Shown here piece by piece: positions 14,925 to 60,997 of a stretch of 64,000 nucleotides of DNA. The notes under the pieces were generated by a model that saw nothing but the letters and a program-made list of their open reading frames with translations, was not told the DNA's origin and made no database searches. How positions within the stretch are numbered: position 1 is the stretch's first letter; each line of letters starts with the position of its first letter. Origin of the DNA: Candidatus Hydrothermarchaeota archaeon (GTDB lineage Archaea > CAYFZR01). A program made the translations under genes and the position numbers. The stretch lies in the NCBI GenBank assembly GCA_046760505.1, contig JBHIEG010000004.1, positions 23,111 to 87,110 on the forward strand, in the 5' to 3' direction.

Positions 14925-16922
14925 TCATAAAGGTGCTAAGAATGTATATTTACGTATTGCCTTAAAGGCTTCGAATTTAGTTCCCCCCGCATCGTAAAAC
15001 TTGGAAAACCACTCGTAGTAATGAAGCCTTAGTGTCTGTATAAAGGACACAAAGCCCTCTATTCCGATTATGAAGATGTTTCCGATTAAGAATATTATGG
15101 ATTTCAAAAACAGCGGGGCTACCATTTCCATGAACATTACCATTATGCTACACAAAGCCGCGTGAACTAATGCAATTGCTGTAATTCTTACATACGATAT
15201 ACAGTTCGCCAAATATCTCGTTATAGCCTCGAAAGAACCATAAAAGCCCCACAAAAAAGAGGTATGCTCAGCGTACTTGGTGCCGATGCATATCACCAGC
15301 AAAGGCAAATACAGGAAGGGTATTGCTAGTGTATCTCTTAACAATAGAAATACATCTGTTCCGTGTTTTATAATCAATAATGTGCCGCCCCAAAGGAGCC
15401 AGAGACCGGAGAGGCTCCATGGAGGGAATAATGCTTCCAGATAATCTTTGTGCATGATGTGGTTTAGCATATTCAGTATTATACCCAGACTTAACTGTAC
15501 CAAGCCAATAACGATTGCAAATACAACCAGATTAGTACCGCTTTCTAAAGGTCTAAGCCAGAGAGGCTCTAATATTTCCAATCCGAATACGCTTCCGTAC
15601 AATAAACCTCCAAGCGTACCCATTATTCCACAAGCAAGCATAATCTTCCCAAATTTTTCTATAACTTCGCCGAATTTAAAATAAAAACCCAGCAAGAAAC
15701 CTAAAATTGCTATTACGAGCCCCTGTCCGACATCTCCAAACATTAGCCCATACATGAAGGGGAAACTTATTCCCATAAAGAAGGTTGGATCGATTTTGTC
15801 GTAGCCAGGGAGCCCGTATGTTTCTGTCAGGATTTCAACAGGCTTTATAGGGGGTGGATTTGATAGCATTGTAGGGGGGTTATCTCCTTTTTTTGGTTCA
15901 TCTATTCTAATGATGCCATATCCATTCGTAGTATTGTTAAAGATCTCTTTTAACTTTTCAATTAGATAATAAGGAACCCAACCGCTTATCAAGTAGCTTT
16001 TAGTAGTCTTACCGAATAGAGAGGTGATTTCATCAAGATTTTTTTCTATTTCCAACTGTTCTTTCATTAAGAGTAGTTCTTTTTCATTAACGTTTGCAAT
16101 TCTTTTTAATTCTTCTTTAAGTTTATCCTCTTCTACGGTAATATGAGATATGCTTTCTTCCAAAAAGTTCTCAGCGTCTTCCAATTCAAGATCACAAATT
16201 TTTCTTGGTATGCTAAGACTCTCAAAGCCTCTAGCGCGTAAAATTTTTCGTATTTCACTTTCATATTCATATAAACTAACAATTATGATGAATTTGGTTT
16301 TTTTATCGACATCCCCCGAGAACAAATAGAGAAAATCTTCTGTTGCTTCCTTAAGTTCTGGTTCAAGGAAATTTAATTGATCTTTAGGTACGGTTCCAGT
16401 TTCTAAGTAAAATAGTTTGAAACCCTCCAGATACTTTGGACCGATACCAAAATTTTCCAAAATGGATAAAACTTCTTGGCAAGTAAGAATATCGCTTCTC
16501 TCTTCTCTCAAAGCATCAAGTTTCGATGAAGTCTTTAAAACTTCCTTTTCTATGTTCTCAAACTTTTTTTCGAATCCTTCAAATAGTTCTAGAATAGACG
16601 TTTCTTTGATCGGTATTTTTTCGATTTCTTTTACTTCTAAGATTTTTTTTATTTTGTTGCTAAATGTTTTTTCTTCTTCAACTGACTGCAGAATATCCAA
16701 AATCCTATTTATCCTAGATAAGAGCCCTGATGTTTTATATCTTACCCAAGTAGATGGTGGAACTTCTATTCCTATCTCCTTAAGCATTTCTTGGGATTCT
16801 ATTTCCTCATGAACATTAATGAGATGAATTATTCCCAATTCTTTTAGTTCTCTCATTAGGGGATCTAACTTATCTTCAAGTACAATAGCGTGAACCTTTT
16901 TCATACGTATCGGTCTTAACAT
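14925..16922 (-). CDS. atpI: A/V-type ATPase subunit I (a), paralog 1
   Basis: MLRPIRMKK, PPTMLSNP, GLMFGDVGQG, SYVR essential Arg, QTLRLHYYEWFSKFY. Confidence 0.92.
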   Translation of the reverse strand: MLRPIRMKKVHAIVLEDKLDPLMRELKELGIIHLINVHEEIESQEMLKEIGIEVPPSTWVRYKTSGLLSRINRILDILQSVEEEKTFSNKIKKILEVKEIEKIPIKETSILELFEGFEKKFENIEKEVLKTSSKLDALREERSDILTCQEVLSILENFGIGPKYLEGFKLFYLETGTVPKDQLNFLEPELKEATEDFLYLFSGDVDKKTKFIIIVSLYEYESEIRKILRARGFESLSIPRKICDLELEDAENFLEESISHITVEEDKLKEELKRIANVNEKELLLMKEQLEIEKNLDEITSLFGKTTKSYLISGWVPYYLIEKLKEIFNNTTNGYGIIRIDEPKKGDNPPTMLSNPPPIKPVEILTETYGLPGYDKIDPTFFMGISFPFMYGLMFGDVGQGLVIAILGFLLGFYFKFGEVIEKFGKIMLACGIMGTLGGLLYGSVFGLEILEPLWLRPLESGTNLVVFAIVIGLVQLSLGIILNMLNHIMHKDYLEALFPPWSLSGLWLLWGGTLLIIKHGTDVFLLLRDTLAIPFLYLPLLVICIGTKYAEHTSFLWGFYGSFEAITRYLANCISYVRITAIALVHAALCSIMVMFMEMVAPLFLKSIIFLIGNIFIIGIEGFVSFIQTLRLHYYEWFSKFYDAGGTKFEAFKAIRKYTFLAPL

Positions 16923-20905: not shown

Positions 20906-22414
20906 CTAAATTAGATCAGGTATCTGCTCCTCCTCCCTGACTATGCATTCTATGAGAAAAGGCTCTCTTATTCTAATTGTCTCATTTAAAACTTCATTTA
21001 GAGAGGGTATGTCATCTACTCTTTCCCCATTTATTCCATAAGAATTAGCCAGCTTTGTAAAATCGGGATTTCTTAAATTTATTGAGGTAGTTCTTCCGTA
21101 TATTCTCTCTTGGAATTGTCCTATCAGTTCGAGAGATGAGTTGTTTATCAGAACTATTTTTATTGGTATCTCATATTGTTTTATCGTTGCTAGTTCACTT
21201 GAACTCATCATAAAACCGCCATCTCCAACTATAGAAACTACTAATTCGTGAGGCATTGCAATCTGCACACCTATTGAAGCAGGTACAGAGAAACCCATGG
21301 GGGTGAAGTTACCCGGTACGATAAAACTTCTCGGTCTATATACCTTAGAAAGCATGCAACCCCAAACGGTAAAGGATCCTATGTCATAGACTGTTATTCC
21401 TTTCTTACCTAGCGTATCATGGACTGTTTTGCATATGCTCTTGCTTGTGAATCCTTTATGTCCTTCAAGGTCTTCTTTGTCCTTTTTTATTCCTATCTTT
21501 TTGTTTATATCGTATTTCAACAGTCCCAGTAAGACTAATTTTGCATCTCCAATTATCTCCATATCAGCAAGGACTCTGGATGAATTTTTCTTAACGTCTA
21601 TTCTTACTACCTCAGCATCGATATCTTCAAGATCAATGGTCAATGGAGAAGCGCTGCATCCTATAATGATTAAGAGATCTGTCTCCTTTAACATTTCATT
21701 TGCTTTCTTATTACCCCTTTTCCCCATAACTCCTAAAGAAAGGGGATGATCCTCTGGTATAACTCCTCTTGCCATCATCGAGGTCGCAACAGGTATGGAA
21801 ATGGACTCTGCTAGTTTGACTAACTCTTTACATGCGTTACTCCATAAAATTCCTGATCCTGCTAAAATCATCGGATTACTCGAATTTTCAATTCTCTCCG
21901 CAAGTTTTCTAATTAAGTTCTCATCGGGCTTTCTTCTAGAAACATGAAATTTTCTTCTTTTTACATCTTCTTTTTTCTTCAAAACGTCTTCAGGTACCGC
22001 TATGTGCACTGGTCCAGGACAATCTTTCAAAGAGAACTCATAACAAGAAAGGACGGTTTCATAAACATTATTTTCCAATATAACGCTTTTTTTTGTTATA
22101 TTTCTAAATAAATTTGTTGAAACATCATCTACTCCGGTAATGGCTACGACTGGTATGTTATCTTTTTTTGCATTTGCTACTCCCATGGTAAGATTCAATG
22201 CTCCTGGACCTGCTGTTGCTATACAAGTGCCGGGAGAACCAGAAACTCTTGCGTAACCATCACATGCATGTACAGCTCCTTGTTCGTGTCTTGTCAATAT
22301 GTTTTTGATGTTAGAATCTAGCAAAAGATCGTACATTTCCAAAATTCTTTTTCCGGGAATTCCAAAAACAGTCTTTACGTTAGCATCTTCTAATGCCTTT
22401 AAGAAGGGATTCAT
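20906..22414 (-). CDS. thiamine pyrophosphate enzyme (acetolactate synthase large subunit-like / 2-oxoacid decarboxylase)
   Basis: FGIPG, RHEQGA, GPGALN, and GDGGFMM..NN TPP motif; no small-subunit gene adjacent. Confidence 0.85.
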   Translation of the reverse strand: MNPFLKALEDANVKTVFGIPGKRILEMYDLLLDSNIKNILTRHEQGAVHACDGYARVSGSPGTCIATAGPGALNLTMGVANAKKDNIPVVAITGVDDVSTNLFRNITKKSVILENNVYETVLSCYEFSLKDCPGPVHIAVPEDVLKKKEDVKRRKFHVSRRKPDENLIRKLAERIENSSNPMILAGSGILWSNACKELVKLAESISIPVATSMMARGVIPEDHPLSLGVMGKRGNKKANEMLKETDLLIIIGCSASPLTIDLEDIDAEVVRIDVKKNSSRVLADMEIIGDAKLVLLGLLKYDINKKIGIKKDKEDLEGHKGFTSKSICKTVHDTLGKKGITVYDIGSFTVWGCMLSKVYRPRSFIVPGNFTPMGFSVPASIGVQIAMPHELVVSIVGDGGFMMSSSELATIKQYEIPIKIVLINNSSLELIGQFQERIYGRTTSINLRNPDFTKLANSYGINGERVDDIPSLNEVLNETIRIREPFLIECIVREEEQIPDLI

Positions 22415-23415
22415 AAGATTTCCCTTAACGTTTTTATTAGAGATTCAGTAAATTCTTTTGTAGACGAATTTCCATTTAAATCAGGAGTTTTTATTCCTCT
22501 TTTTAATACTTTTTCGATGGACGATTCAATCTTTTTTGCATAATCTTTTTTTCCGAGATAACTCAGCATTAGGCAAGAGGACAATATGCTAGCAATGGGA
22601 TTTGCTATGCCTTTACCTGCGATATCTGGGGCACTACCATGAATCGGCTCGAAGAGAGCATAATTATCCCCCAAATTCATACTTGGAACTATACCGATGC
22701 CCCCTATCAAACCTGCGCCGATGTCGGAGATTATGTCTCCGAAGAGATTTGTCGTCAGAATAACGTCAAATTTTTTTGGATCTTCTACGAGATGCATACA
22801 AAATGAATCTATCAGACACTCTTCTTTCTCTATTTCTTGATATCTTTCACCCACTTTAAGAGAGACATCTCTGAACAATCCACATGTCTTTCTTAGGACA
22901 TTTGCTTTGTGGACAATTGTTACTTTCTTTCTTTTTTCTTTTCTAGCCTGTTCAAAAGCAATCTTTGCTATTCTCTCGCTTCCCTTTTTTGTAATAATTC
23001 TCTTCGCAGAGTATCCGTCGTTTAACTCTTCTTCAATTCCTGAGTATAATCCCTCTGAGTTTTCCCTTACCACTATCAGGTCGACATCTTTGTGGATTCC
23101 TCTTATTTCCTTTAGGCTCTTTATGGGTCTGATATTAGCGTATAATTCAAGTTCTTTTCTTAATGTAAGTATGGGACTTTTATATCCTTCAATAATCTTG
23201 GGAGGGGTGGTTGTTGCACCGAATAAACATGCATCAGTTTCTTTTACTGTCTCAATTACTTCTTCAGATATGGACTCTCCGCATTTCTTATAACATTCAT
23301 ATCCTGCTTCCAGAAAGACGAATTCCATGTCCAAATTCAATTCTTTTAAAATTTTTATGGTGGCTCCAATTACTTCAGGTCCTATTCCGTCGCCTTCAAT
23401 AACCGAGATTCGCAT
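22411..23415 (-). CDS. aksF: (homo)isocitrate/isopropylmalate dehydrogenase family protein (AksF-like)
   Basis: [44 protein letters not shown]; same operon as homoaconitase genes. Confidence 0.75.
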
Positions 23416-23894
23416 ATCCTTTTCTTCCTGTAAGGGATTAAACCTCCACTTTTTAGAATATCTAACATAAATTCTGGAAGTTTTTCTGCCTTTAGCACGT
23501 TTTTTTCGGTTTTTACGATGCCATTTTCAATATCCACCTCTATTATATCACCTTCTTCAACCATTTTTGTTATTCCTTTGCATTCGACAACTGGGAGACC
23601 TAAGTTTATCGAGTTTCTGAAGAAAATTCTGGCAAAGGATTCTGCGATAACACATTTTATGCCCGCCTCTTTTATTGCTATGGGGGCCTGTTCCCTACTA
23701 GATCCACATCCAAAGTTTTCTCCCGCTACTATTAAGTCACCTTCCTTTATTTTCTTAGAAAAATCAGGATCTAACCCTTCTAATAGATGTTCTACCCAGA
23801 TGGTGTGATCCAACGTCCTTAGATATTTTCCAGGAATGATAACGTCAGTATCGATATGATCGCCAAGTTTCCATACCCTTCCTTTAATTCTCAT
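23382..23894 (-). CDS. aksE: homoaconitase small subunit
   Basis: [14 protein letters not shown] (YLRT loop typical of methanogen homoaconitase); [11 protein letters not shown]. Confidence 0.8.
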
Positions 23895-25072
23895 GTTATC
23901 TCCCTTGGGTCCGTTATCTCTCCCGTTATCGCAGAAGCTGCCACGGTCGCAGGGCTAGCCAGGTATATCTTTGCCTTTCTGCTTCCCATTCTTCCTATGA
24001 AATTTCTATTCGAGGAGGAAATACAGATTTCCCCCTTTCCAAGAACCCCGAAATTCCCACCCAAGCACGGGCCGCAACCTGGCGGACCCAAAACCGCTCC
24101 GGCTCTTAAAAAATGTGCCAACAAACCTTCTTTACATGCTTTGTCCAAAGTCTTCTTTGAAGCAGGAACAATGATGAGTCTAACGTCTTCATGGATTTTT
24201 TTATCCTTCAAAATATTTGCAACTATCCTAAGATCCTCTATCCTTCCGTTAGTACATGATCCAATGAAAGCCTGATCTATCGAGCTTTTTACGTCTGATA
24301 CTGGCCTTACAGAGTCTACTCTGTTTGGAGAAGAAACTGAAATATCTATATCGTCTGCATCTAAGAATATTTCTTTTTCCACCTGGTATGAATCATTGTT
24401 GGCGATGATTCCTGTTTTTGCACCCATCTCTACTGACATATTACAAAGAGTCTGTTTTTCTGAGATGTTCATGTTATTTACGGTCTCTCCGAAGAATTCT
24501 ATGCACATATAGTGGGCCCCACTCATTCCGATTTCTTTTATTACATTAAGAATTACATCTTTTGCACTAACTAAGTTTGTGAGGTTACCGTTTATGTTCA
24601 CCCTGTACGTTTTTGGTACCTTGAGCCAAGTCATCCCGCTTTCTAAAATATAGGCGCAGTCTGTAGCACCCATACCTATGGCAAGGGCTTTAGATGCCCC
24701 ATTCGTACACGTGTGAGAATCCGCTCCTACCAATATCATTCCTGGCTTCACCAGTCCCCTTTCATAGATTACTTGGTGGCATATTCCGTGACCTATGTCA
24801 AAGAAGTTTTTTATATTCTGCTCTCTTGCAAATCTTCTTATCATGTTGTGCAAGTTGGCTGTTTGTTCATTGTTAGCAGGTATTAGGTGATCAAACACGA
24901 TAGCTACTTTATCAGGATCCCATACTTTCTCTGCTAGCTCTTTAAAGCTTTTAACAACTAAGGTTGCGGAACCATCATGCATCATGCAAAGATCCACAGG
25001 AGTTTCAACGAAATCTCCAGCGTATACTTTTTCTTTTATTTTTTTGCTGATTATTTCCTCAGCCAAGGACAT
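23891..25072 (-). CDS. aksD: homoaconitase / isopropylmalate isomerase large subunit
   Basis: [38 protein letters not shown]. Confidence 0.8.
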
Positions 25073-26255
25073 ATCTTTCTCCTTTCTTTACTCTTTCAGC
25101 AAATTCTCTGATTAAATCGTCTGTTATTGTGTATCCATCCTCTCTGTATTCTTTAACGAGATAAACTACCGAATCTACTTCTTCTTCGCTCAAATTATAG
25201 TTTAATTCCTTTAATTTTTCCAAAACACCACGAAATCCGCTGTGTTTACCATAAACTAATTCTCTTTTCTTTCCAACTATCTGAGGAAGGTATGGTTCGT
25301 AGGTAAATGAATTTTCCAATACGGCAGCAACATGAATTCCTGATTCATGTCTGAAAACATTTTTGCCGACTATAGCCTTGTTTGGTGGAATATCTATTCC
25401 TGAGTACCTAGACACCAACTCAGAGAGCTCACTGAGCACAGAATACCTGAAGCCCAAGTCGACTCCATACAGGATGTAAAGAGACATGATTACTTCCTCG
25501 AGAGAGGCATTTCCCCCTCTTTCTCCGATTCCATTTACCGTACATGATACCGCATTAATTCCGGCTTCCACAGCGGCTAAGGAATTGGCAACTGCAAGCC
25601 CAAAGTCGTTGTGACAATGAACCGCCATGGGTATTTTGATCTCTTTTCTGAGCGTGGATATGAGTGATTTCATTGCAGTTGGGTGTATGCAGCCAACCGT
25701 ATCTGCCAGCCCCACTCTATCGGTTTTTAATTCCTCAGCGATTTTGTATACCTTTAACAGGGCATCGATATCGGATCTCGTACCATCTTCACAACTTAAC
25801 TGTGTCCATATACCATGGTCTTTTGCATACTCTACTGTTTCTATTCCTTTTTCGATTATTTCGTCTAAACGCGCTTTTACTTTATACTTCAGGTGGATAT
25901 GAGATGTTGGGAAAAATATTATGACACCGTCAACTCCACACTTCAGGGCATAGTCCACATCCTTTATGTTTGCCCTTGCAAGAGAAAGTACTTTTAAATT
26001 TAAACCTTGGTCAACTATCTTTTTTATACCAATCCTTTCCCTTCTTGATACACTGGGAAAGCCAGCTTCGATTTCTTGAACACCCAGTTCATCCAGCTTT
26101 ATTGCTATTTCTAACTTTTGTTGGGGAGTAAACGCCACCCCCGGAGTTTGTTCACCATCCCTTAAGGTAGTATCATATATAGTCAGGTTTTCCGCTATAG
26201 AGATGTTTTTTCTCACTTCATCTGTTAAGTTAAATCCACTGACACAACTTTTCAT
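25059..26255 (-). CDS. aksA: homocitrate synthase family (AksA-like), no C-terminal regulatory domain
   Basis: DTTLRDGEQ, HCHNDFG, GIGERGGN, HESGIH, GKHSG. Confidence 0.78.
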   Translation of the reverse strand: MKSCVSGFNLTDEVRKNISIAENLTIYDTTLRDGEQTPGVAFTPQQKLEIAIKLDELGVQEIEAGFPSVSRRERIGIKKIVDQGLNLKVLSLARANIKDVDYALKCGVDGVIIFFPTSHIHLKYKVKARLDEIIEKGIETVEYAKDHGIWTQLSCEDGTRSDIDALLKVYKIAEELKTDRVGLADTVGCIHPTAMKSLISTLRKEIKIPMAVHCHNDFGLAVANSLAAVEAGINAVSCTVNGIGERGGNASLEEVIMSLYILYGVDLGFRYSVLSELSELVSRYSGIDIPPNKAIVGKNVFRHESGIHVAAVLENSFTYEPYLPQIVGKKRELVYGKHSGFRGVLEKLKELNYNLSEEEVDSVVYLVKEYREDGYTITDDLIREFAERVKKGERYVLG

Positions 26256-27161
26256 CTATATCCTTCCTATGAGTTCATTCAGAGATGAGGCAATCTCTTC
26301 TTTTGAAGCGCCAAAGTGAATTGCGATTCCTATATTATTGTTTAACTTCATGAATCCTAATTTATCTCTCAGACAACACCTCAGTATAAAAGGATGTCTC
26401 ACGATTTCTTTTGCTACTTCTCTTGGACATATGTTTTCGTGGATGAATTTCTCGTTAAATTTCTCTTCAAATACCATCTTTGATACTTCACAGCCAATAA
26501 GCACATTATTTTCCTTTACCTCTTGGACATCTGTTAGAAAGGCGAAGTTTCCATTCAGTTCATTTTTTGTTATCCCGATATCACACGGAAATAGGAGAAG
26601 GGTATTTTTAGCAATATATTTTCTTCCTTTTTCTATCAAATTTATGGCATTCAACTCGAAATCTATGAAAAAATCTTTTTCTTTTATCAAACCGCACCGT
26701 CTTAGATAAGTGATATCCTCCATCAGTTTTGAGGGGAAAGGCGGAACAACGTCTATGACCTGTATTTTTTTGATATTTGAATCTAAGGGATCGATAACGA
26801 AATTCATATGTTCATGCTCTCCAAATACTACTACTGCCTTTGCATTAGATTTTTTAGCCTCTTTGTAAGCAGTGGTTATAAGTTCGCTCTTACATCTCAC
26901 GTCTATGGGTCTTTTTATCACTGAAGTCTCTTCTGGCATTGAAATTATGGATAAATTAATTATTTTTTGAATAAATCCTTTTCCAGCTAATTCTGTCTCA
27001 ACGATTGCTGCATCATTACTTTTTTCATTTAACAGAACTATGTACTTAGATGAAAAGTAGGCTTCTTTGTTCTTAAGAGACCTTTTAATTTCTTCTCTGT
27101 CCCTCAAATTGATTTTGACTTTTTTCAATGAAACAAATCTACAGTGCTCCGGCAAGATCAT
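26256..27161 (-). CDS. conserved Cys-rich hypothetical protein (possible Fe-S/metal binding)
   Basis: FPC, IGC, ICP, RCC and HFG motifs; ATG 27161 overlaps the upstream stop (ATGA). Confidence 0.75.
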   Translation of the reverse strand: MILPEHCRFVSLKKVKINLRDREEIKRSLKNKEAYFSSKYIVLLNEKSNDAAIVETELAGKGFIQKIINLSIISMPEETSVIKRPIDVRCKSELITTAYKEAKKSNAKAVVVFGEHEHMNFVIDPLDSNIKKIQVIDVVPPFPSKLMEDITYLRRCGLIKEKDFFIDFELNAINLIEKGRKYIAKNTLLLFPCDIGITKNELNGNFAFLTDVQEVKENNVLIGCEVSKMVFEEKFNEKFIHENICPREVAKEIVRHPFILRCCLRDKLGFMKLNNNIGIAIHFGASKEEIASSLNELIGRI

Positions 27162-28156
27162 AAGATATCCCTGTGAGGAGTTAGGTCGCATCCTGTACAC
27201 GGCGGACACATTGTCTTTGGCTTATCCATCTTTAGCCCGTATGAATCGAGTATTTCCTTCTGCGCTATAGCGAGTCTTAAAAGCCTATCAGCGCTGGGTC
27301 TACTTGCTCTATTATCTGTTGAACGCATCAAATCCCCCCTTCTCAAAGGAGATATAACTAGTGCCCGTAGTATGGGAATGACCCCAATCGATGCTAAATG
27401 CTCGATTCCTTCTATTACCGTTTCATCGCTCTCTCCCAGACCTATAATCATGTTTGAAGTCACTTTATTTTCTCCAAATACTTCTACAGCATATTTCAGT
27501 GAATCTATAATTTCATCGAGAGATAAATCCTTGCATGTTCTTTTGAATATCTCCTGATCGTAACTCTCTATGTTGTACTTTATTTCATCGGCTCCAGCGC
27601 TGTACAGTAGATCTGTCCCCTCGTTTCCTGCAGAATAAGGAGATACGCCTATTGGGACATTAAATTCTTCTTTTGCCAGTCTGATTATTTTTGCCAGTTT
27701 AATTACCTCTTCTCTGGGATCTTTAGGTACCCCACTCGTTAGAGAAATCGCTGAAAATTCCTTATTTTTTGAGGCTGATCTTATCATATCCAATACTTTC
27801 TCAACTGATCTGTTTTCACCTTTCAGTTTGGGTACTGGACAGAATTTACAATCGAATATACAGGAGGCATCTACTGTTATGTAAGCCTGTTTTGGACAAT
27901 GAAGAATTGGTTCTTCAAGTTCAAATTTATCGATTATTATTTCGTCCTCCATTATTATTTCATTTTCCTTTAGTATAAGAGGAGAATCCTTTGCTATTGT
28001 AAGTCTTACTCTTTTCCCACCTTTTTTTATGAATATGGATTCTGAACCGGCGCCAGGTCCAGAAGCAGAGTAACCTAGCCTTAAATTATCAATACTAACC
28101 TCGTCGATGTTTATTTTTCCTATTGAGATTAGTTTTGCCTTTATTTCGGGCTTCAT
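27158..28156 (-). CDS. radical SAM protein (BioB/LipA-like core)
   Basis: HCPKQAYITV, CIFDCKFC, IIGLGESD, C-terminal CPPCTGCD. Confidence 0.88.
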   Translation of the reverse strand: MKPEIKAKLISIGKINIDEVSIDNLRLGYSASGPGAGSESIFIKKGGKRVRLTIAKDSPLILKENEIIMEDEIIIDKFELEEPILHCPKQAYITVDASCIFDCKFCPVPKLKGENRSVEKVLDMIRSASKNKEFSAISLTSGVPKDPREEVIKLAKIIRLAKEEFNVPIGVSPYSAGNEGTDLLYSAGADEIKYNIESYDQEIFKRTCKDLSLDEIIDSLKYAVEVFGENKVTSNMIIGLGESDETVIEGIEHLASIGVIPILRALVISPLRRGDLMRSTDNRASRPSADRLLRLAIAQKEILDSYGLKMDKPKTMCPPCTGCDLTPHRDIL

Positions 28157-29091
28157 ATCAGAACACCTTGATCTGGTTTATCATAATAAGGTATCGCTGC
28201 CAATGCACCGATTAACCCTCTTTTTCCTGTTATTTGGAATAAGTTTACGTCGTTTTTTCTCGCAACATTATAGGCTTTTTCTATTGTGACTATGCTTTCC
28301 TTTGCCTCTCTTGAAAATTTTTTTAAATCCTCATTAATAAAAAATCTCCCATATGTTGCGAGTCCGGTTTGATCAGATAGGGTATTCTTTTCGAGATATT
28401 TCTGGGCAAACTCTATGATTTCATTCTTTTTTTCTTTTTTTGAGGCAAATCCCAATGATACACTCACGCAATTTTGAGTTTTATCAGGATTTTTTGGATA
28501 AAGCTGAACTATTGAGTGATATATGTATTCTCCCAATCCTTTTTTCTGAATTTCGCACCCCAAATTATGCGTTAATGACCATGTTGCTCCTTCTTCTTTA
28601 TTATCTGTATCATCTACTCCCAAGACTAATCTTTCCATTCTTGGCAAGACTACGGTTGCTCTACTGTACTTGCTTCCGCCTCCGCTAGCGTGTATCTCGA
28701 CTCTTTTAACTCCTTCTGCCATTCCACGCGAATAGGATGCGCCAACACCTCCTCCCCCCAATCCTGCATAAGTAACATGGATTTCATTCTCTATTATTTT
28801 GATTTCCTCTATTCCTGCGCCCGAAATGCCGGGAACCAAGTTGAGATCGCATTTTCCAGCAAGAGTTAAGAAAACATTTCTCTTTCCTTCCCTTCTAGCT
28901 TCTTTTACTAATTTGCTGGTTTTTTTGAAGTGGAGAGTGGTCCAAGCCGAACCCCCAAAACTTGCAGTCTCCTCTATAATCTCTACATAGGTATTGTCCT
29001 CGCTTGCTATGGCAATTATTTTGTCACAGGGAGCAATCCACTCCTTATCTCCGAATTCTTCAGCAAACTCCTCTCTCGAATAGACCTTCAT
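28153..29091 (-). CDS. mmp11: methanogenesis marker protein 11 (TiaS-like domain)
   Basis: YAGLGGGGVGA, GVDDTDNKEEGATW, VQLYP..KTQNC, GLIGALAAI. Confidence 0.8.
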   Translation of the reverse strand: MKVYSREEFAEEFGDKEWIAPCDKIIAIASEDNTYVEIIEETASFGGSAWTTLHFKKTSKLVKEARREGKRNVFLTLAGKCDLNLVPGISGAGIEEIKIIENEIHVTYAGLGGGGVGASYSRGMAEGVKRVEIHASGGGSKYSRATVVLPRMERLVLGVDDTDNKEEGATWSLTHNLGCEIQKKGLGEYIYHSIVQLYPKNPDKTQNCVSVSLGFASKKEKKNEIIEFAQKYLEKNTLSDQTGLATYGRFFINEDLKKFSREAKESIVTIEKAYNVARKNDVNLFQITGKRGLIGALAAIPYYDKPDQGVLI

Positions 29092-30011: not shown

Positions 30012-30084
30012 GGGCCCGTAGCTTAGTGGTTAGAGCGCCCGGCTCATAACCGGGCGGTCGCGGGTTCGAATCCTGCCGGGCCCA
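30012..30084 (+). tRNA. tRNA with CAT anticodon, probably tRNA-Ile2
   Basis: GGGCCCG acceptor stem; CCCGG-CTCATAA-CCGGG anticodon arm; GTTCGAATC; body resembles archaeal Ile rather than Met tRNAs. Confidence 0.9.
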
Positions 30085-30130
30085 CCTCACACGAAGATCG
30101 AAGATCCTCGGTGCGCCAAAAATCCTCGAT

Positions 30131-54352: not shown

Positions 54353-54829
54353 CTATCCGAGTAGACCGGAGTTCAGTAAGATCATGACAGCCATGACAAA
54401 TCCCAGTATAGCGAAGAATTCTGCCATTATTCCAAATACCATGGATTTTCCGAATACTTCTTCATTCTTCGCAGTGGCGCTTATGCCCCCTGCACAGGTT
54501 ATTCCCTGCCCTATTGCTGTTAGACCTGCTACTCCCATGCATAAACCCGCAGCAATAGCAGCGAGGCTTACTGGACTTGTAATCTCCTTTCCTGAAAGAA
54601 GGGCGCCAGAAAGAATGAATATACCTACCAAAAATCCGTAGATCCCCTGAGTTTGAGGTAATTGCTGTAGTATTAGGGATTTACTGAACTTCTTCGGATC
54701 TTGCGCAGTAACTCCAGCTGCAGAGGCTCCAGCAATACCGACACCCAGTGCTGCCCCGAATCCCGCAATTCCAACTGATAGTCCAATACCTATGGTTGCG
54801 AGAGCAGCAGTTTGCGTCAATTCAACCAT
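54353..54829 (-). CDS. atpK: A/V-type ATPase subunit K/c, two hairpins, one Na+-type site
   Basis: LPQTQGIYG, AIGQG, MAEFFAILG; GAGGTG RBS before ATG 54829. Confidence 0.92.
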   Translation of the reverse strand: MVELTQTAALATIGIGLSVGIAGFGAALGVGIAGASAAGVTAQDPKKFSKSLILQQLPQTQGIYGFLVGIFILSGALLSGKEITSPVSLAAIAAGLCMGVAGLTAIGQGITCAGGISATAKNEEVFGKSMVFGIMAEFFAILGFVMAVMILLNSGLLG

Positions 54830-56945
54830 AGTCACACCTCCTTAATTTTGTATATTTTCTTACAGCGCGGAAGGGAATGTACTTATCTCCTCCACCTTCA
54901 TAGAACTTTCCAAATAATTCTGCATAGTGTAATCTCAATGAATGGATGAATCCACCGAGAGAATTTAATCCGAAACTTGTCAAGTGTCCTATGAACAATA
55001 TCAAAAATACCAAGAAAAGTGCAAGTAAACCAAAAGGAGATTTCATTCCATTGCTTATTATACCAAAGATGCTTGTGTATCCACCTATCTCTGCCAATCC
55101 CATGGTGGTTGCCAAGATATAAGCAGTTACATTTACAGCTAGAGCCAAGCCACCCGTTGCCATTGCAAGCGCCAGAATTCTTGAATAAGAGATCAGATCG
55201 CCAAGAAGTCCGGTACAATCGAAAAAGCCTAGTGGACCTCCGCGTACTATTACTAATGCAGAGCCAACCAAGAGCAAGTAGAGTCCATATTTGAAGGCTT
55301 TTTCAGTGATAGCTTTAACTCCAAACAACTTGAATAACACAAGTATTAGGCCTATTTCGAGTGTCAATAATCCAACTTGACCTATAGCTTCTCTCAAGTT
55401 TTTATTCTCTAACGCATTCTTGAAAGAAATGAGAATCCCTATATCCATATGAACGGCTCCCAAAAGTACTGAAACTACTAATACTAGCAAAACCGGACTT
55501 ATTGGATGGCCTAAAAACAGTAATGACTCGGTAGCAAAGGGATCTACCCATATAGGCTTTGTTTCAAAGTTTAGGAAACGTTCTGAAAAATCTCCAAGGT
55601 AACTGCCTGTTAGAATACCGAAGAATATTGCTGAGAGTCCGCCTATTATAAGGATACTAGAAACGTCGTTTATACTCTCGTTGATTTTTCCATGACCCTT
55701 TTTCACGAGCAGGGCAAAAATTACGGCCATCAACCCGTAAATAGCATCTGTTAGCATAAAACCAAAGAATACTGTGAAGAAAACTGCTATTATCAAGGTT
55801 GGATCGAGTTCTCCCTTCTTTGGTAGTCCAAACATTCCGGTCAGCATCTCGTAAGGCTTTATAAGCTTGGGATTCTCAAGCAGAACCGGAGGCTCTTCTT
55901 CAGAGGAACTTTGGGCTTCCTCTACCAATACACATCCATCGGTAATTTCCTCGGATAGTTTCTTTACCCTATCAAGATTTCTCTTTGGACACCATGCCTC
56001 AAGGATAACAGCGTTTTTTGTCTCAAGAAGGAAAGGGGTTATTCCTTCTCTCTCAGCCTCTATGACAGAGATTTCATGGTTTAATAGCATGTTCCACTCA
56101 TTTTCTTTGACAATTTCGTATGCCGATTCAATTATCCTCTTTTCTTCGGCCTCTAGTTCATCAAGGGCTCTTTCTATTTTCTCTACAGACTCTGAAGGCG
56201 TACCTTCAACTTCTGGCAATTCAATAGACTCAAACTTAACTTTCAACAAAAAATCGTTTACCACTTCCATAAACTCATTGGTTGTTATTACAACCACTAG
56301 TGATCTTCCGTCTATCTCTTCGGCGTGGAAAAATAAGCATTCATTTGTTAAAGATCTTAAAATTTCTAATTCTTTCACTTTCTCCAGAGATATAGTACCG
56401 ATCCAGATTTTGCAAAACTTGTAATTTTCTTCCTTTAAATACTCAACATTTACATCTAAAGGTTCCAGCAATTTTAGTGTATTTAAATAATCCCTAAACC
56501 TGTCTTTTTCAGAATCGATTTCGTTCAGTCTTGTCTCAAAAACACTTACCTCATTCTCGATTTCCGATATGCTGGTCTCTAGACGGTTAATCAGCTCATC
56601 TACTTCAAGTTTGTCTATCTCTTCCCCTTCTATAACTCCTGGAAACAAAGCCGAGTAAATGTTGTTCAGCGCTGCTCGAACTTTTGATTTTAAATTTCCT
56701 TTTTTTGTTTCAGAACCTTTTATATCTTTTATTACATCGAAAAATGTGAGTATACGCCTGAACCTCATTGAGAAGTGCAGAAAAATACGCTCTTCACCCT
56801 TTGATTCTTCAGCAAATTCTGATAATTCTTTGCTGGTTTCTTTAACTTGGAGAAGCCCTTCTTCGTGCAGCGCTCTGATGAGGGGGGCAGCAAAGTATTT
56901 ATGCGTAACTATTACTACCTTTTTCATCTCTGCAGGCCGCATCAT
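54822..56945 (-). CDS. atpI: A/V-type ATPase subunit I (a), paralog 2
   Basis: MRPAEMKK, PPVLLENP, GFMLTDAIYG, SYSRILALAMATGG, HSLRLHYAELFGKFY. Confidence 0.93.
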   Translation of the reverse strand: MMRPAEMKKVVIVTHKYFAAPLIRALHEEGLLQVKETSKELSEFAEESKGEERIFLHFSMRFRRILTFFDVIKDIKGSETKKGNLKSKVRAALNNIYSALFPGVIEGEEIDKLEVDELINRLETSISEIENEVSVFETRLNEIDSEKDRFRDYLNTLKLLEPLDVNVEYLKEENYKFCKIWIGTISLEKVKELEILRSLTNECLFFHAEEIDGRSLVVVITTNEFMEVVNDFLLKVKFESIELPEVEGTPSESVEKIERALDELEAEEKRIIESAYEIVKENEWNMLLNHEISVIEAEREGITPFLLETKNAVILEAWCPKRNLDRVKKLSEEITDGCVLVEEAQSSSEEEPPVLLENPKLIKPYEMLTGMFGLPKKGELDPTLIIAVFFTVFFGFMLTDAIYGLMAVIFALLVKKGHGKINESINDVSSILIIGGLSAIFFGILTGSYLGDFSERFLNFETKPIWVDPFATESLLFLGHPISPVLLVLVVSVLLGAVHMDIGILISFKNALENKNLREAIGQVGLLTLEIGLILVLFKLFGVKAITEKAFKYGLYLLLVGSALVIVRGGPLGFFDCTGLLGDLISYSRILALAMATGGLALAVNVTAYILATTMGLAEIGGYTSIFGIISNGMKSPFGLLALFLVFLILFIGHLTSFGLNSLGGFIHSLRLHYAELFGKFYEGGGDKYIPFRAVRKYTKLRRCDYG

Positions 56946-58008: not shown

Positions 58009-59478
58009 TTATTCTTCTTCCACCCTCTTTATTAGTTTTACAATACTCTCTCCTTTTCTGGTTAATTTTAGTCCTTTTTCCGTTTCTGCAACCAAACCCA
58101 TCAATCTGAGCACTCTCAGTCTTTCTTCTATTCTATGTCTCGGTAATCCGGTGGTGGACTCTATTCCTTCAATGTCTTTAGCCCCATAGTGGATTGACAT
58201 TGTTATAAGGCGACCCATCTCGCCTAGGTCAATATCAAGCCTGGTTCTAATTGCTTCCGGCTCAAACAATTCTATTACTGGAACTGCCACTCCATATTCA
58301 ATGAGTTTTTGAGTTTGTTCAGAGTCATATCCCTCTTCCTTGCATTTAAGAACTGTTCTAATATCATTAATTTCATTCTCCCTTTGAAGTAGATAGTTTA
58401 CGAGCGGTGAAATAGAAAAAGGCTGCCTTAAGGAGAGTGCCAACTCAGTCTCCAACAAGAATTCATCAAGTTTTCTTTCAAAAGGAATTATTGACCCGAT
58501 TTCTTCGTATTCGGGCAATAGTTCACTTATTATTCTACCGTAAGGAGTTCCCTCGAGACCGCTTATGACCTCTTCTACGTTATATGCCTCTGCTAGGCTC
58601 AAGAGAACCTCAGGCATTATGTTATAGCCAATCGGTATGAGCAGACTTTTTATGTCTTCCGGAGAAACGTTCTCTGACTTCAGTCTTAGCAGATTCTTTA
58701 TATTTTCTATGTCAATCCATGTTCCGAGGAATACCTTGAACATCTTTAGCTCATCTGTTAAACCTGATGCAACCAGCGACCAAACTTTAAAGTAGTAATA
58801 CCTGTCTAGAGCACTTTCCAGGACCAAAAGAGATTTTTTCTCTTCATAATCCGGTAAAACTTCCTTGAGAACATTCGCATACTCCGTACCCTCGAGTTTT
58901 GAGATGAATTCTTCCATACTCCTAGAATCAGCAAGGGTTTCCAACTCAGTTAGGTCAAGATCGCCAATGGGTATCATCGTATTGATATCTGGCATTACAT
59001 TTGCATGGATCGCCCTGATTATCTTTTTTAGGTTTTTTATTTCCCATCTCTTCGTCCATGCAGCAACAATCCTTTTGGCATCTTCTGGAGAGTAATGTAA
59101 AATCTTCTCGTATACATCCTTCAAACAGCGGTTAAACATAATTTCAGCATCGAATAATCCCTTGCTTTCCGCTAAAACTTCTTCTGTATATTTCCCATAT
59201 TCTGTATCGCCCAGGTTTACCATAGCTTCAATCAAAGAATCAGATTCTAAAAGTTGATTGAATTTAGGTTTGCCGATGTATTTTGCTTCCATTGCCCGAA
59301 TTTTTGCGTTAAGCAAAGAATATGGTGCAATATCTGTCACGAACCTAATAATGGGTATAATGATGATTATAAAACACAGAATCGCCAAAAGAAGAACTAG
59401 AAAGAAGAAAATTTGAGGATGGTCTGAAAATCCAAAAACTTCTGCAATGGCTAGGTAATCTTCGATACCGCCTACCAT
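58009..59478 (-). CDS. atpC: A/V-type ATPase subunit C (d), paralog B, fused to a C-terminal winged-helix domain
   Basis: PYSLLNAKIRAMEAK, WEIKNLK, LEGTEY, IDIENIKNLLRLK, ENEINDIR, then IESTTGLPRHRIEERLRVLRLMGLV..LTRKG. Confidence 0.88.
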   Translation of the reverse strand: MVGGIEDYLAIAEVFGFSDHPQIFFFLVLLLAILCFIIIIIPIIRFVTDIAPYSLLNAKIRAMEAKYIGKPKFNQLLESDSLIEAMVNLGDTEYGKYTEEVLAESKGLFDAEIMFNRCLKDVYEKILHYSPEDAKRIVAAWTKRWEIKNLKKIIRAIHANVMPDINTMIPIGDLDLTELETLADSRSMEEFISKLEGTEYANVLKEVLPDYEEKKSLLVLESALDRYYYFKVWSLVASGLTDELKMFKVFLGTWIDIENIKNLLRLKSENVSPEDIKSLLIPIGYNIMPEVLLSLAEAYNVEEVISGLEGTPYGRIISELLPEYEEIGSIIPFERKLDEFLLETELALSLRQPFSISPLVNYLLQRENEINDIRTVLKCKEEGYDSEQTQKLIEYGVAVPVIELFEPEAIRTRLDIDLGEMGRLITMSIHYGAKDIEGIESTTGLPRHRIEERLRVLRLMGLVAETEKGLKLTRKGESIVKLIKRVEEE

Positions 59479-59510: not shown

Positions 59511-60239
59511 TTAACCAAACAGCCCAGTGCCGTACATTATTAGCAAAGCAATCAACAGGCCAAATATCGCGAAAGTTTCAGACATAACTGCCAATACAAT
59601 GCTTTTTCCCATTGTAGCGGGCTCTTTTGCAGCCGCTCCTATTCCACTTGCCGCAGTTATTCCCTGTCCTATTCCCGATAGTCCTGCTAGCCCTACAGAA
59701 GCACCTGCTCCAATTGTTGCGAGTCCTACCATGGGTGAGAGTGCTTTACCCATCGTACCTATGATACCAGCGAAAACAAGCAATAGTATAGCCGTGAGTA
59801 ACCCATAGATTGCCTGGGTCTCAGGCAATACGGAGAATACCATTCCCTTACCGAATACCTCTGGATTCTCTGATGTTGCCCCTATTCCACTTGCCGCTGC
59901 TATTCCTTGTCCTATGGCAGATAAACCTGCCATACCAACTCCTATTCCTGCTCCAAGAGATGCCATAGCCATAAGAGCGGAAAAACCCTCTCTTGGAGCC
60001 TTCGTTATTAGTCCAGTCCCTAGAAGTATTAATATCGCTGTCAATAATCCATAAATGGCTTGAGTTTGTGGCAGCGCTGAGAATACGATTGTTACGCCAA
60101 ATTTCTCTGGGCTCTCCGATATCACGGTGGCTCCTGCAGCCCCAGTTATACCTACACCAATTCCAGATCCTACCGCTGCAATTCCCATTGCAAGACCTGC
60201 TCCAACTGCTGCAAGAGCGAGATTAACATCCAATGGCAT
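59511..60239 (-). CDS. atpK: A/V-type ATPase subunit K/c, three hairpins, two Na+-type sites
   Basis: LPQTQAIYG, LPETQAIYG, MSETFAIFG; IGQG in hairpins 2 and 3. Confidence 0.93.
   Translation of the reverse strand: MPLDVNLALAAVGAGLAMGIAAVGSGIGVGITGAAGATVISESPEKFGVTIVFSALPQTQAIYGLLTAILILLGTGLITKAPREGFSALMAMASLGAGIGVGMAGLSAIGQGIAAASGIGATSENPEVFGKGMVFSVLPETQAIYGLLTAILLLVFAGIIGTMGKALSPMVGLATIGAGASVGLAGLSGIGQGITAASGIGAAAKEPATMGKSIVLAVMSETFAIFGLLIALLIMYGTGLFG
59777..59855 (-). repeat. 79-bp exact block shared (inverted) with 63442..63520
   Basis: The reverse complement TTCGGTAAGGGAATGGTATTCTCC..CTATTGCTTG is identical in both K genes. Confidence 0.9.
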
Positions 60240-60976: not shown

Positions 60977-60997
60977 ATATTGTTCAGAGGGAAATCT

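Follow-up and report, generated by a model that had tools for sequence, protein, structure and literature searches.

Within the window, the 64,000-nucleotide stretch of DNA that was analysed, eight genes on the minus strand overlap or abut one another between 20906 and 29091, at the coordinates given in a first-pass annotation made from the sequence alone. The eight-gene operon described there was incomplete in one respect: a ninth co-directional gene, coding for a second radical SAM enzyme, stops 24 nt before mmp11. The features are as follows.

30012-30086, plus strand: tRNA-Met (ARAGORN), the upstream boundary of the operon
29922-29119, minus strand: second radical SAM gene (Radical_SAM and Fer4_12 domains)
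29091-28153, minus strand: mmp11 (TIGR03280 and the TiaS TCKD domain)
28156-27158, minus strand: radical SAM gene (Radical_SAM domain)
27209/27161-26256, minus strand: DUF7714 gene (PF24830), initially described as Cys-rich
26255-25059, minus strand: aksA (HMGL-like and HCS_D2 domains)
25072-23891, minus strand: aksD (Aconitase domain)
23894-23382, minus strand: aksE (Aconitase_C domain)
23415-22411, minus strand: aksF (Iso_dh domain)
22414-20906, minus strand: thiamine diphosphate (ThDP) enzyme gene (three TPP_enzyme domains)

According to the gene coordinates, 4-nt overlaps join mmp11 to the radical SAM gene, aksD to aksE, and aksF to the ThDP enzyme gene, and longer ones join aksA to aksD (14 nt) and aksE to aksF (34 nt). 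The radical SAM and DUF7714 genes overlap by 4 nt if the latter starts at the ATG at 27161 and by 52 nt if it starts at the GTG at 27209, and the DUF7714 gene abuts aksA (0 nt). These overlaps argue for one transcript. The second radical SAM protein has about 268 residues when counted from Met57 of a long ORF, the N terminus of which is an artefact that reads through the opposite-strand tRNA-Met gene. The protein clusters closest to it hold MoaA-like radical SAM proteins without a name. Its position beside mmp11 is conserved only in the congener, and we regard it as a possible ninth member of the operon. The flanking genes (proteasome beta, DUF169, an MFS transporter and a metallo-beta-lactamase fold protein) are all unrelated. 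The only congeneric genome available (G001) has the identical nine-gene order, with proteins that are 77-89% identical. The host is a deep-branching archaeon from a hydrothermal vent.

Elongation genes and their host paralogues

The four aks genes belong to the same families as the methanogen enzymes AksA, HacAB (AksD/E) and AksF, and they resemble them further in their grouping in one operon, in a short-form synthase and in a YLRT-type loop. AksA, a short-form homocitrate-type synthase, scored 510.4 bits on the LEU1_arch subfamily model (cut-off, 484.75); its three host paralogues, on contigs C14, C29 and C11, are longer LeuA/CimA-like or divergent proteins. AksD, a HacA-like homoaconitase large subunit, reached 527.6 bits on IPMI_arch (cut-off, 410) and 520.1 bits on HacA_Meth, just short of the cut-off of 550. 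The corresponding values for AksE, the HacB-like small subunit, were 226 bits on LEUD_arch (cut-off, 109) and 211.5 on HacB_Meth (cut-off, 230), and those for AksF, a homoisocitrate-type dehydrogenase, were 446.1 on LEU3_arch (cut-off, 409.8) and 450.8 on its best equivalog, AksF2_Meth (cut-off, 540). The operon proteins thus differ from the methanogen pathway in that they pass the subfamily cut-offs but narrowly miss those of the HacA, HacB and AksF equivalogs, which we counted against a coenzyme B (CoB)-type product, and in that their host has no methyl/alkyl-coenzyme M (CoM) reductase (MCR).

The recognition loop of AksE reads GKYLRT, in agreement with the YLRT loop noted initially. The same loop occurs in Methanosarcinaceae-like aksE (GKYLRT) and in one of the three small subunits of a Methanocaldococcus sp. 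The other small subunits of the host read GKYLVI (LeuD on C14) and GKYKFS (a third paralogue). A complete ilvB-ilvN-ilvC-ilvD-leuA/leuC-leuD-leuB cluster, with its Leu-type loop, is located on contig C14, and a DapB equivalog is encoded elsewhere in the genome; both speak against a role of the operon's aks genes in leucine or lysine synthesis. In line with the initial observation that no ilvN or ilvC gene is adjacent, there is no ilvN beside the ThDP enzyme gene, and the true ilv/leu cluster is on that other contig.

Four enzymes beside the elongation genes

The ThDP enzyme (502 aa) is IlvB-like and falls under every NCBIfam cut-off. It shares 34% identity with the host's own IlvB, lacks the 14-residue segment that bears the G.DAFQE of IlvB, and is placed outside the supported IlvB clade (SH-aLRT, 98). 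These sequence features, together with the lack of an adjacent ilvN, disfavour an acetolactate synthase; we propose that the protein is a 2-oxosuberate decarboxylase. Its homologues in five Methanomethylicia loci are 38-41% identical to it, and those linked to Mmp11 also lack G.DAFQE. The tree did not resolve orthology between the operon enzyme and these Methanomethylicia enzymes, which was counted against the CoB-type reading.

Mmp11 scored 367 bits on TIGR03280 (cut-off, 255.8) and 26 columns are invariant in 28 homologues. The Mmp11 of the host lineage forms a separate deep branch. Comparison of its AF2 model (pLDDT, 94.5) with the PDB returned nine matches at E<=0.001, every one of them TiaS and over ~155 columns, whereas the N-terminal 150 residues gave no significant structural match. 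The architecture is thus an N-terminal domain of no known kind joined to a TiaS-type kinase (TCKD/FLD) half, in which the motifs DDTD, P..P.KT and G.IGALAA align with TiaS, in line with the TiaS-like character assigned initially. In TiaS, the tRNA(Ile2) agmatidine synthetase, a carbonyl is activated with ATP so that agmatine can attack. By analogy, we propose that Mmp11 is an ATP-dependent activation or ligation enzyme that would likewise prime a carbonyl to react with an amine. The two proteins differ in that only ~155 of the 312 residues of Mmp11 match, against ~155 of the 417-420 residues of TiaS, with the remainder of TiaS beyond the TCKD/FLD half missing, and in that Mmp11 scores 52.5 bits on the TiaS equivalog (cut-off, 600). 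The host also has a separate TiaS-like gene (430 aa).

The radical SAM enzyme likewise lies under every NCBIfam cut-off, its nearest models being variant_rSAM, MSMEG_0568 and LipS2. Its eight invariant Cys comprise those of C99x3C103x2C106 and of a C-terminal C317xxC320xxC323, among others, and the protein probably carries an auxiliary Fe-S cluster. In its CX3CX2C motif and additional invariant Cys it resembles the sulfur-inserting enzymes LipA/LipS2 and BioB, which have auxiliary clusters, but its matches to the LipS2, BioB and LipA models are weak and far under all cut-offs (LipS2, 61.8 versus 270). We propose that it is the sulfur-handling partner of DUF7714.

DUF7714 (196.6 bits on PF24830) contains 8 Cys, five of which are invariant in 24 homologues. 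It scored 115.8 bits (E 2.2e-33) on the NCBIfam XcbA family, under the cut-off of 150, and the match runs from residue 18 to residue 315 of the ORF, covering positions 8-290 in a profile of 293; at the sequence level, DUF7714 is a distant full-length relative of XcbA. Its model (pLDDT, 91.3) had no match in the PDB at E<=0.001. The available text of PMC9457059 describes XcbA, from Xanthobacter autotrophicus Py2, as the [2Fe-2S] thioaldehyde reductase of bacterial CoM synthesis, which converts sulfoethanethioaldehyde to CoM. Given the homology, the Cys content and the thiol-cofactor context, DUF7714 is proposed to be an Fe-S thioaldehyde/thiol-forming reductase. It differs from XcbA in being archaeal, in its linkage to aks rather than CoM genes, and in its partner, a radical SAM enzyme instead of the PLP enzyme XcbE.

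Linkage, co-occurrence and the host genome

The whole operon combines aks genes with four further enzymes; the other lineages examined show this arrangement only in parts. In Methanomethylicia, aksD, aksE (YLRS), an IlvB-like ThDP enzyme gene and mmp11 follow one another in 5/5 loci, with aksA also upstream in two of them and Mmp4 beside aksA in the one locus scanned (L049). In 4/4 Methanosarcinaceae-like genomes, DUF7714 sits between aksE (YLRT) and aksF, and mmp11 is immediately followed by an IorA-like ThDP enzyme gene that is non-orthologous to the IlvB-like one. DUF7714 and the radical SAM gene are adjacent in genome G117. The linkage in Methanobacteriales is ambiguous: the small subunit in the trio adjoining mmp11 is of the Leu type (YLV[LIVM]) and a YLRT copy is elsewhere, so this frequent adjacency (47 of 54 loci) cannot be counted as Aks linkage.

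Co-occurrence was determined in 221 archaeal genomes, of which 38 are mcrA-positive and 183 mcrA-negative. Mmp11 was found in 36 of the former and 5 of the latter, DUF7714 in 10 and 2, respectively, and DUF7714 and strong radical SAM orthologues occur in exactly the same 12/221 genomes. In this profiling against mcrA, which the first-pass annotation had suggested, the distributions of Mmp11 and DUF7714 were counted in favour of a CoB-type reading. DUF7714 and the radical SAM enzyme, however, are missing from 28/38 mcrA-positive genomes and thus cannot be the universal thiolation system.

To our knowledge, MCR is the only established user of CoB. Neither mcrA nor mcrBDCG, A2 or CfbD was found in the host genome or its one congener, and ComD was likewise not found in either (G000 and G001). 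Both retain HdrB and Mmp16, the host having several HdrB-type heterodisulfide reductases and a Mmp16 gene away from the operon. The methanogen host implied initially was therefore not borne out; Hdr is present, and its occurrence without MCR changes what the pathway is for.

A putative route to a coenzyme B-type thiol

According to the available text of PMC12068725, the CoB pathway was still called unknown in May 2025, its late steps being without assigned genes. The four uncharacterised enzymes beside the early CoB genes look like these missing steps. With moderate confidence, we favour the reading that the nine-gene operon (29922-20906) leads from 2-oxoglutarate and acetyl-CoA to a CoB-type thiol in a non-methanogen. 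Judging from homology and the YLRT loop, AksA, AksD/E and AksF would elongate 2-oxoglutarate, presumably to 2-oxosuberate. The IlvB-derived ThDP enzyme, having lost the G.DAFQE segment of AHAS, may then decarboxylate the 2-oxoacid to the omega-aldehyde 7-oxoheptanoate, from which the radical SAM enzyme and DUF7714 would form the thiol via a thioaldehyde-level intermediate, as the XcbA analogy suggests. The TiaS-type kinase domain of Mmp11 could use ATP to phosphorylate the carboxylate, which the amine of threonine (or phosphothreonine) would attack. As the host is without MCR, the product would serve another use, most plausibly the several HdrB-type heterodisulfide reductases. The archaeal end steps of CoM synthesis are similar in that ComDE, a sulfopyruvate decarboxylase, converts a 2-oxoacid to an aldehyde with ThDP before reductive thiolation by ComF/Mmp16 (PMC12068725, available text); the operon enzymes are different ones, with ComD not found and Mmp16 unlinked in the host.

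The initial assignment of the four enzymes to late CoB steps is thus partly supported, by independent linkage and co-occurrence in other lineages, XcbA homology and the TiaS fold, and weakened by the host's lack of MCR, A2 and CfbD and by the absence of DUF7714 and the radical SAM enzyme from most mcrA-positive genomes. No threonine kinase candidate was identified, and genetics in M. acetivorans implicate the COG1900 proteins MMP16/L-ASST in CoB thiolation (PMC12068725, available text); the former and, with the unlinked host Mmp16, the latter were also counted against this reading.

The same enzyme logic might instead yield another thiol- or 2-oxoacid-derived cofactor for an MCR-free metabolism, with a chain length or head group other than that of 7-mercaptoheptanoylthreonine phosphate. 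The missing MCR, A2 and CfbD, the missed Aks equivalog cut-offs and the deep Mmp11 branch would fit such a product, but we consider it unlikely in view of an aksE loop identical to that of Methanosarcinaceae-like genomes, an Mmp11 well above its family cut-off, and radical SAM and DUF7714 orthologues that otherwise occur only in mcrA-positive genomes. It is quite improbable that Mmp11, the radical SAM enzyme and DUF7714 serve to mature or modify proteins or RNAs, or to regulate them (e.g., Fe-S maturation or TiaS-like nucleic-acid modification), and are merely co-regulated with aks. The sole characterised relative of Mmp11 does modify tRNA, most sampled methanogens lack DUF7714 and the radical SAM enzyme, and in Archaeoglobales mmp11 is paired with an MSMEG_0568-family radical SAM gene in 7/8 loci, with an aks-like gene within reach in only 1/8. 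Against this, Mmp11 lacks the rest of TiaS, the host has a separate TiaS-like gene, and the XcbA substrate is a small molecule (PMC9457059, available text); the linkage of two unrelated ThDP 2-oxoacid enzymes to mmp11 across lineages points to small-molecule chemistry as well.

A role of the Aks-like genes in amino acid synthesis (lysine via 2-aminoadipate, or leucine/isoleucine), beside an acetolactate synthase and unrelated neighbours, appears very improbable. All four proteins and the ThDP enzyme do belong to families common to Leu, Ilv and Lys enzymes, and none of the former reaches an Aks equivalog cut-off. This is countered by the complete ilv/leu cluster on C14 and the DapB equivalog, by the features that separate the ThDP enzyme from IlvB, and by gene overlaps that suggest a single transcript.

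The nine-gene operon and its Aks-like genes

The operon comprises eight open reading frames (ORFs), identified from the ORF listing and by Pfam and NCBIfam searches, and a ninth gene upstream of them:

29091-20906, minus strand: eight ORFs, in the order mmp11, radical SAM gene, DUF7714 gene, aksA, aksD, aksE, aksF and thiamine diphosphate (ThDP) enzyme gene
29922-29119, minus strand: second radical SAM gene (~268 aa), the ninth gene, ending 24 nt upstream of mmp11

Successive overlaps among the eight genes amounted to 4, 4 (52 with the upstream GTG), 0, 14, 4, 34 and 4 nt. The first-pass annotation had described eight overlapping or abutting genes at 20906-29091; this observation is confirmed and slightly enlarged, because all eight ORFs were identified and a ninth gene precedes mmp11. 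The apparent long N-terminus of this second radical SAM gene is a read-through of a tRNA-Met gene lying on the other strand. On either side of the operon are unrelated genes, which encode a proteasome beta subunit, a DUF169 protein, an MFS transporter and a protein of the metallo-beta-lactamase fold. Promoter and terminator scans, made with models that are ill-suited to archaea, were at or below the shuffle expectation.

The host assembly (2.17 Mb in 142 contigs, with the window on contig C4) was rated 100% complete and 5.67% contaminated. In the GTDB set searched, the host phylum consisted of this genome and one congener only. Since these nine genes recur in identical order in the congener, with protein identities of 77-89%, the operon is native and not a binning artefact, which rules out contamination as its source. 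Four public DNA runs, all from one study of hydrothermal-vent metagenomes, contained the stretch, three of them being possible sources, and no RNA run containing it was found among the public sequencing runs. The operon-type radical SAM gene is present a second time in the congener (contig C84:7211-8152 of that genome, locus L148; 45-48% identity), and the host genome has no such additional copy at that level.

Pfam and NCBIfam assigned the aks products to a synthase of the short-form homocitrate/isopropylmalate type, to both subunits (large and small) of a homoaconitase/isopropylmalate isomerase-type dehydratase, and to an isohomocitrate/isopropylmalate-type dehydrogenase. The archaeal subfamily models IPMI_arch, LEUD_arch and LEU3_arch were passed. 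The methanogen HacA (NF040615; 520.1 vs. a cut-off of 550), HacB (NF040604; 211.5 vs. 230) and AksF (NF040626; 450.8 vs. 540) equivalogs were narrowly missed. As the first-pass annotation had stated, no ilvN gene adjoins the operon: the ilvBN genes sit in a separate canonical cluster on contig C14, where one strand carries ilvC, ilvN, ilvB, ilvD and leuA in its long form, and the opposite strand leuC, leuD and leuB.

The small subunits of the host genome differ in their loops, namely, GKYLRT in the window, GKYLVI in the LeuD of C14 and GKYKFS in a copy on contig C39, so that aksE has the Arg-Thr of the YLRT substrate-recognition loop. According to Jeyakanthan et al. 2010, YLRT is reportedly the signature of homoaconitase (HACN). 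Three small-subunit paralogues with YLVY, YLRT (GPYLRT) and YLKT were found in a Methanocaldococcus genome. In Methanocaldococcus jannaschii, the loop dictates which substrate the enzymes prefer, as stated in a paper citing Jeyakanthan 2010 (PMC7308503). The DapB equivalog was recovered in the host genome with 326.5 bits (cut-off 122), which argues that lysine is made through diaminopimelate.

Further paralogues in the host genome include a third LeuCD-like pair on C39, synthases on C29 and C11, and a dehydrogenase on C12. Besides the C39 pair (C39:11355-13081, locus L112), with its unusual GKYKFS loop, the genome has an isocitrate/homoisocitrate-type dehydrogenase (C12:7342-8349, L113) and a 432-aa homocitrate/Re-citrate-synthase-like gene (C11:32011-33018, L115). 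Together, these genes may form a route to 2-oxoglutarate.

Mmp11, the ThDP enzyme and the putative thiolation proteins

Mmp11 scored 367 bits against TIGR03280 (cut-off 255.8; 366.8 bits in the genome search) and also contained the TCKD domain of TiaS (Pfam TiaS_TCKD, 61.3 bits vs. 27). The structure predicted for it had a pLDDT of 94.5, and in Foldseek searches its C-terminal half matched TiaS structures only (9 at E ≤ 0.001, rmsd 1.9-3.5 Å), with no significant structural match for the N-terminal 150 residues. Mmp11 thus has in common with TiaS the TCKD-type kinase fold and the conserved motifs DDTD, P..P.KT and G.IGALAA; however, the match extends over ~155 columns only, the TiaS chains being 417-420 residues long, and the score against the TiaS equivalog NF040849 was 52.5, as compared to a cut-off of 600. 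TiaS phosphorylates a carbonyl oxygen at the expense of ATP, letting the amine of agmatine attack. By analogy, if a carboxylate were activated in this way for attack by the amine of threonine, the result would be the amide bond of coenzyme B (CoB; 7-mercaptoheptanoylthreonine phosphate).

Judging from the family description, we take the "marker" property of TIGR03280 to be its confinement to genomes with methyl-CoM reductase (MCR). However, Mmp11 was present without mcrA in the host genome, its congener and the archaeal genomes G168 and G188, and four of five further Mmp11-bearing genomes checked lacked mcrA. In a sample of 221 archaeal genomes, Mmp11 was found in 36 of the 38 mcrA-positive genomes, both misses having a very divergent mcrA, and in 5 of the 183 mcrA-negative genomes (host, congener, two of family f11, and G141, which was counted as mcrA-negative with 276 kb of its genome outside the search). 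The Mmp11 of the host lineage forms a deep branch that is weakly sister to the clade of the Methanosarcinaceae-like family f42 (SH-aLRT 81), and there is therefore no sign of a recent transfer. Two genomes of family f32 (G045 and G133) were characterized by a very divergent mcrA (~515 bits), no Mmp11 at E ≤ 1e-35 and weaker MSMEG_0568-like radical SAM matches.

The ThDP enzyme (502 aa) is IlvB-like, and acetolactate synthase was considered as its identity. Both the HEQ glutamate and the ThDP motif GDG...NN are retained. Against its being the large subunit IlvB are the following results: its best score was 396.8 bits vs. a cut-off of 866, it lies outside the supported IlvB clade (SH-aLRT 98) that includes the genome's own IlvB, it lacks the 14-residue segment that bears G.DAFQE in every IlvB of the tree, and it has no adjacent ilvN. 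The glutamine of FQE has a catalytic role in acetolactate synthase. In the Mmp11-linked ThDP enzymes of Methanomethylicia, the G.DAFQE segment is replaced. The tree supported no branching order among the non-IlvB paralogues, and nothing relevant was seen among the genes around the IlvB-like paralogues that class I methanogens have.

The DUF7714 protein, which the first-pass annotation had called Cys-rich, scored 196.6 bits against PF24830 (gathering score 25). Its match to the XcbA family NF052538 was full-length, aligning residues 18-315 with positions 8-290 of the 293-position profile, at 115.8 bits, below the cut-off of 150. XcbA contains a [2Fe-2S] cluster and reduces sulfoethanethioaldehyde to coenzyme M (PMC9457059). 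In the DUF7714 protein, five cysteines are invariant in 24 homologues. The predicted structure (pLDDT 91.3) gave no match in the PDB at E ≤ 0.001. A profile search of 5.8 billion proteins returned only 256 relatives, and those among the 120 matches listed were all named "hypothetical," "uncharacterized" or "DUF7714."

The radical SAM protein encoded next to it scored 67.3 bits against PF04055 (cut-off 29.5) and has eight invariant cysteines, including those of the CX3CX2C motif (C99, C103 and C106, invariant in 10 homologues) and of a C-terminal CxxCxxC, as expected for auxiliary cluster ligands. It was below every curated cut-off, the nearest models being variant_rSAM, MSMEG_0568 and LipS2, and it missed all of the sulfur-insertion equivalogs LipS2 (61.8 vs. 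270), BioB (36.8 vs. 225) and LipA (21.2 vs. 310).

DUF7714 was present in 12 of the 221 archaeal genomes (host, congener, 6/6 of family f23 and 4/4 of f42), and strong radical SAM orthologues (E ≤ 1e-48, full length) occurred in exactly these 12; the two genes are adjacent in genome G117. In this profiling against mcrA, which the first-pass annotation had proposed for three unknown genes, the radical SAM and DUF7714 proteins were absent from 28 of the 38 mcrA-positive genomes.

Gene neighbourhoods in other archaea

Relatives of Mmp11 were scanned in one genome per species, and the best 80 loci were compared with the window proteins. Five loci of Methanomethylicia (L049, L062, L069, L075 and L092) showed the order aksD, aksE, IlvB-like ThDP enzyme and mmp11, with aksA further upstream in L049 and L075. 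Their ThDP enzymes are 38-41% identical to that of the window, and their aksE loop reads AKYLRS. At L049, the sole such locus scanned with NCBIfam, Mmp4 lay immediately downstream of aksA, and mmp11 was followed by an FAD oxidoreductase. In all four genomes of family f42, DUF7714 lies between aksE (GKYLRT) and aksF, and mmp11 is followed immediately by an IorA-like ThDP enzyme of 501-537 aa from another branch (323-327 bits vs. a cut-off of 650.9 for the two proteins scanned). Two unrelated 2-oxoacid ThDP enzymes thus adjoin mmp11 in different lineages, a pattern expected of non-orthologous replacement in one pathway.

In Methanobacteriales, aksD/E/F-like genes were located ~2 kb upstream of mmp11 in 47 of 54 loci, and in all 38 for which 6 kb or more of sequence upstream was available. 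Nevertheless, we did not count this as an Aks linkage, because the small subunits near mmp11 have Leu-type loops (YLVL, YLVI, YLVV, YLIY, YLVF and YLVM; 44 loci), a second, unlinked small subunit with YLRT exists in 3/3 genomes examined, and one trio was split by NCBIfam (HacA_Meth, 588.5 vs. 550; AksF2_Meth, 529.8 vs. 540; small subunit best matched by LeuD). Moreover, a SufS-like desulfurase gene and ribH lie between the trio and mmp11 (e.g., L050:8134-9922 and L136:10111-11833). This SufS-family cysteine desulfurase may donate sulfur, or its position may be coincidental.

In Archaeoglobales and some other archaea, mmp11 lies beside a radical SAM gene of the MSMEG_0568 family, and radical SAM-like neighbours of any kind were observed at 16 of the 80 loci. 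Four of the five genomes of this type examined lacked mcrA. The pairing was seen at L032, L042, L047, L051-L053, L055, L059, L063, L077, L079, L086, L098 and L109, including a Methanocellales metagenome-assembled genome (MAG). A cysteate-synthase-like gene comes next after the pair in Geoglobus (L053), and L109, filed under an Actinomycetota MAG, is probably a mis-binned contig.

A candidate CoB-type pathway in a host without mcrA

Neither mcrA nor component A2 was found in the host genome or its congener, and no CfbD/Mmp13 scored above its cut-off in either. The products of the mcrBDCGA operons of one Methanocaldococcus and one Methanosalsum had no tblastn match in the host genome at E ≤ 0.001, and sulfopyruvate decarboxylase ComD was not found in either of the two genomes. 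HdrB, in turn, exceeded the equivalog cut-off in two copies in the host and three in the congener, along with many more CCG-domain matches. A check of the genome for mcr and hdr, put forward in the first-pass annotation, therefore came out positive for hdr but negative for mcr. The HdrB/CCG-domain gene set of the host is unusually large for an MCR-free genome: it includes 19 matches to the HdrB model (e.g., C1:107132-107968, C8:12298-13164, C16:37035-37856 and several on C7), two of which exceed the cut-off for CoB-CoM heterodisulfide reductase subunit B.

The best-supported reading of the operon is a CoB-type thiol pathway, to which operon structure, homology, fold, co-occurrence and neighbourhoods point, and from which we infer all catalytic roles, the chain length and the end product. 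AksADEF would elongate the 2-oxoacid, which the ThDP enzyme would then decarboxylate; the radical SAM protein and the XcbA-like DUF7714 protein may carry out the thiolation, and Mmp11 would perform the ATP-dependent ligation. The main points against this reading are that the host lacks the only known CoB user, that DUF7714 and the radical SAM protein are missing from most mcrA-positive genomes (28/38), and that another thiolation route has been proposed: in Methanosarcina acetivorans, COG1900 proteins (MMP16, L-ASST) were suggested to thiolate the CoB precursor (PMC12068725). These points fit, but do not prove, alternative or redundant thiolation modules.

The early CoB pathway is already known, and what is new here is the presence of candidate late enzymes in one operon and their occurrence in an MCR-free archaeon. 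To our knowledge, every reaction by which organisms form methane, or oxidise methane or alkanes anaerobically, requires CoB. The operon, along with the partial linkages in Methanosarcinaceae-like genomes and Methanomethylicia, offers four concrete candidates for the genes of the last four CoB steps; these make a long-standing question directly testable and provide new targets for methanogen inhibition. In line with the first-pass annotation, by which the late CoB genes are not firmly assigned, a 2025 paper (PMC12068725) still calls the pathway unknown. The titles and abstracts listed for open full-text papers assigned no role to Mmp11, DUF7714 or the radical SAM protein, nor did they assign a 2-oxosuberate decarboxylase. 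No open full-text paper contained both "TiaS" and "methanogenesis marker," and the available parts of PMC11619418, PMC11237513 and PMC6474303 added nothing on the late steps.

The occurrence of Mmp11, Mmp16 and HdrB in the absence of MCR leads one to ask whether the redox role of CoB-type thiols is older or broader than methanogenesis. A tentative and, in our estimate, rather unlikely scenario is that archaea produce and employ CoB, or a closely related compound, outside methane and alkane metabolism. This phylum-level vent archaeon and several Archaeoglobales, all of them MCR-free, would then keep a dedicated pathway whose thiol serves as a substrate of HdrB-type heterodisulfide reductases. 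If so, the four missing late enzymes would all be identified by the operon together: the decarboxylase, the two proteins of the thiolation module, and Mmp11 as the ligase.

Mmp16/ComF of the host was above its cut-off (458 bits) and is encoded on a contig other than that of the operon. In the same region (C5:69621-72526; L150:9624-12526) of this genome, which lacks ComD, a 384-aa ATP-grasp ligase that is uncharacterised and matches MfnD/MptN weakly is encoded two genes away. It is an alternative candidate for an amide-forming step. The window also contains three paralogous genes for V/A-type ATPase subunit I (14925-16922 and 54822-56945, minus strand; 60980-63046, plus strand), as well as a gene for a C/AC39 subunit and two ORFs whose N-termini are proteolipid-like (58009-59478 and 59511-60239, minus strand; 63058-64000, plus strand), which suggests more than one A-type ATPase membrane sector.
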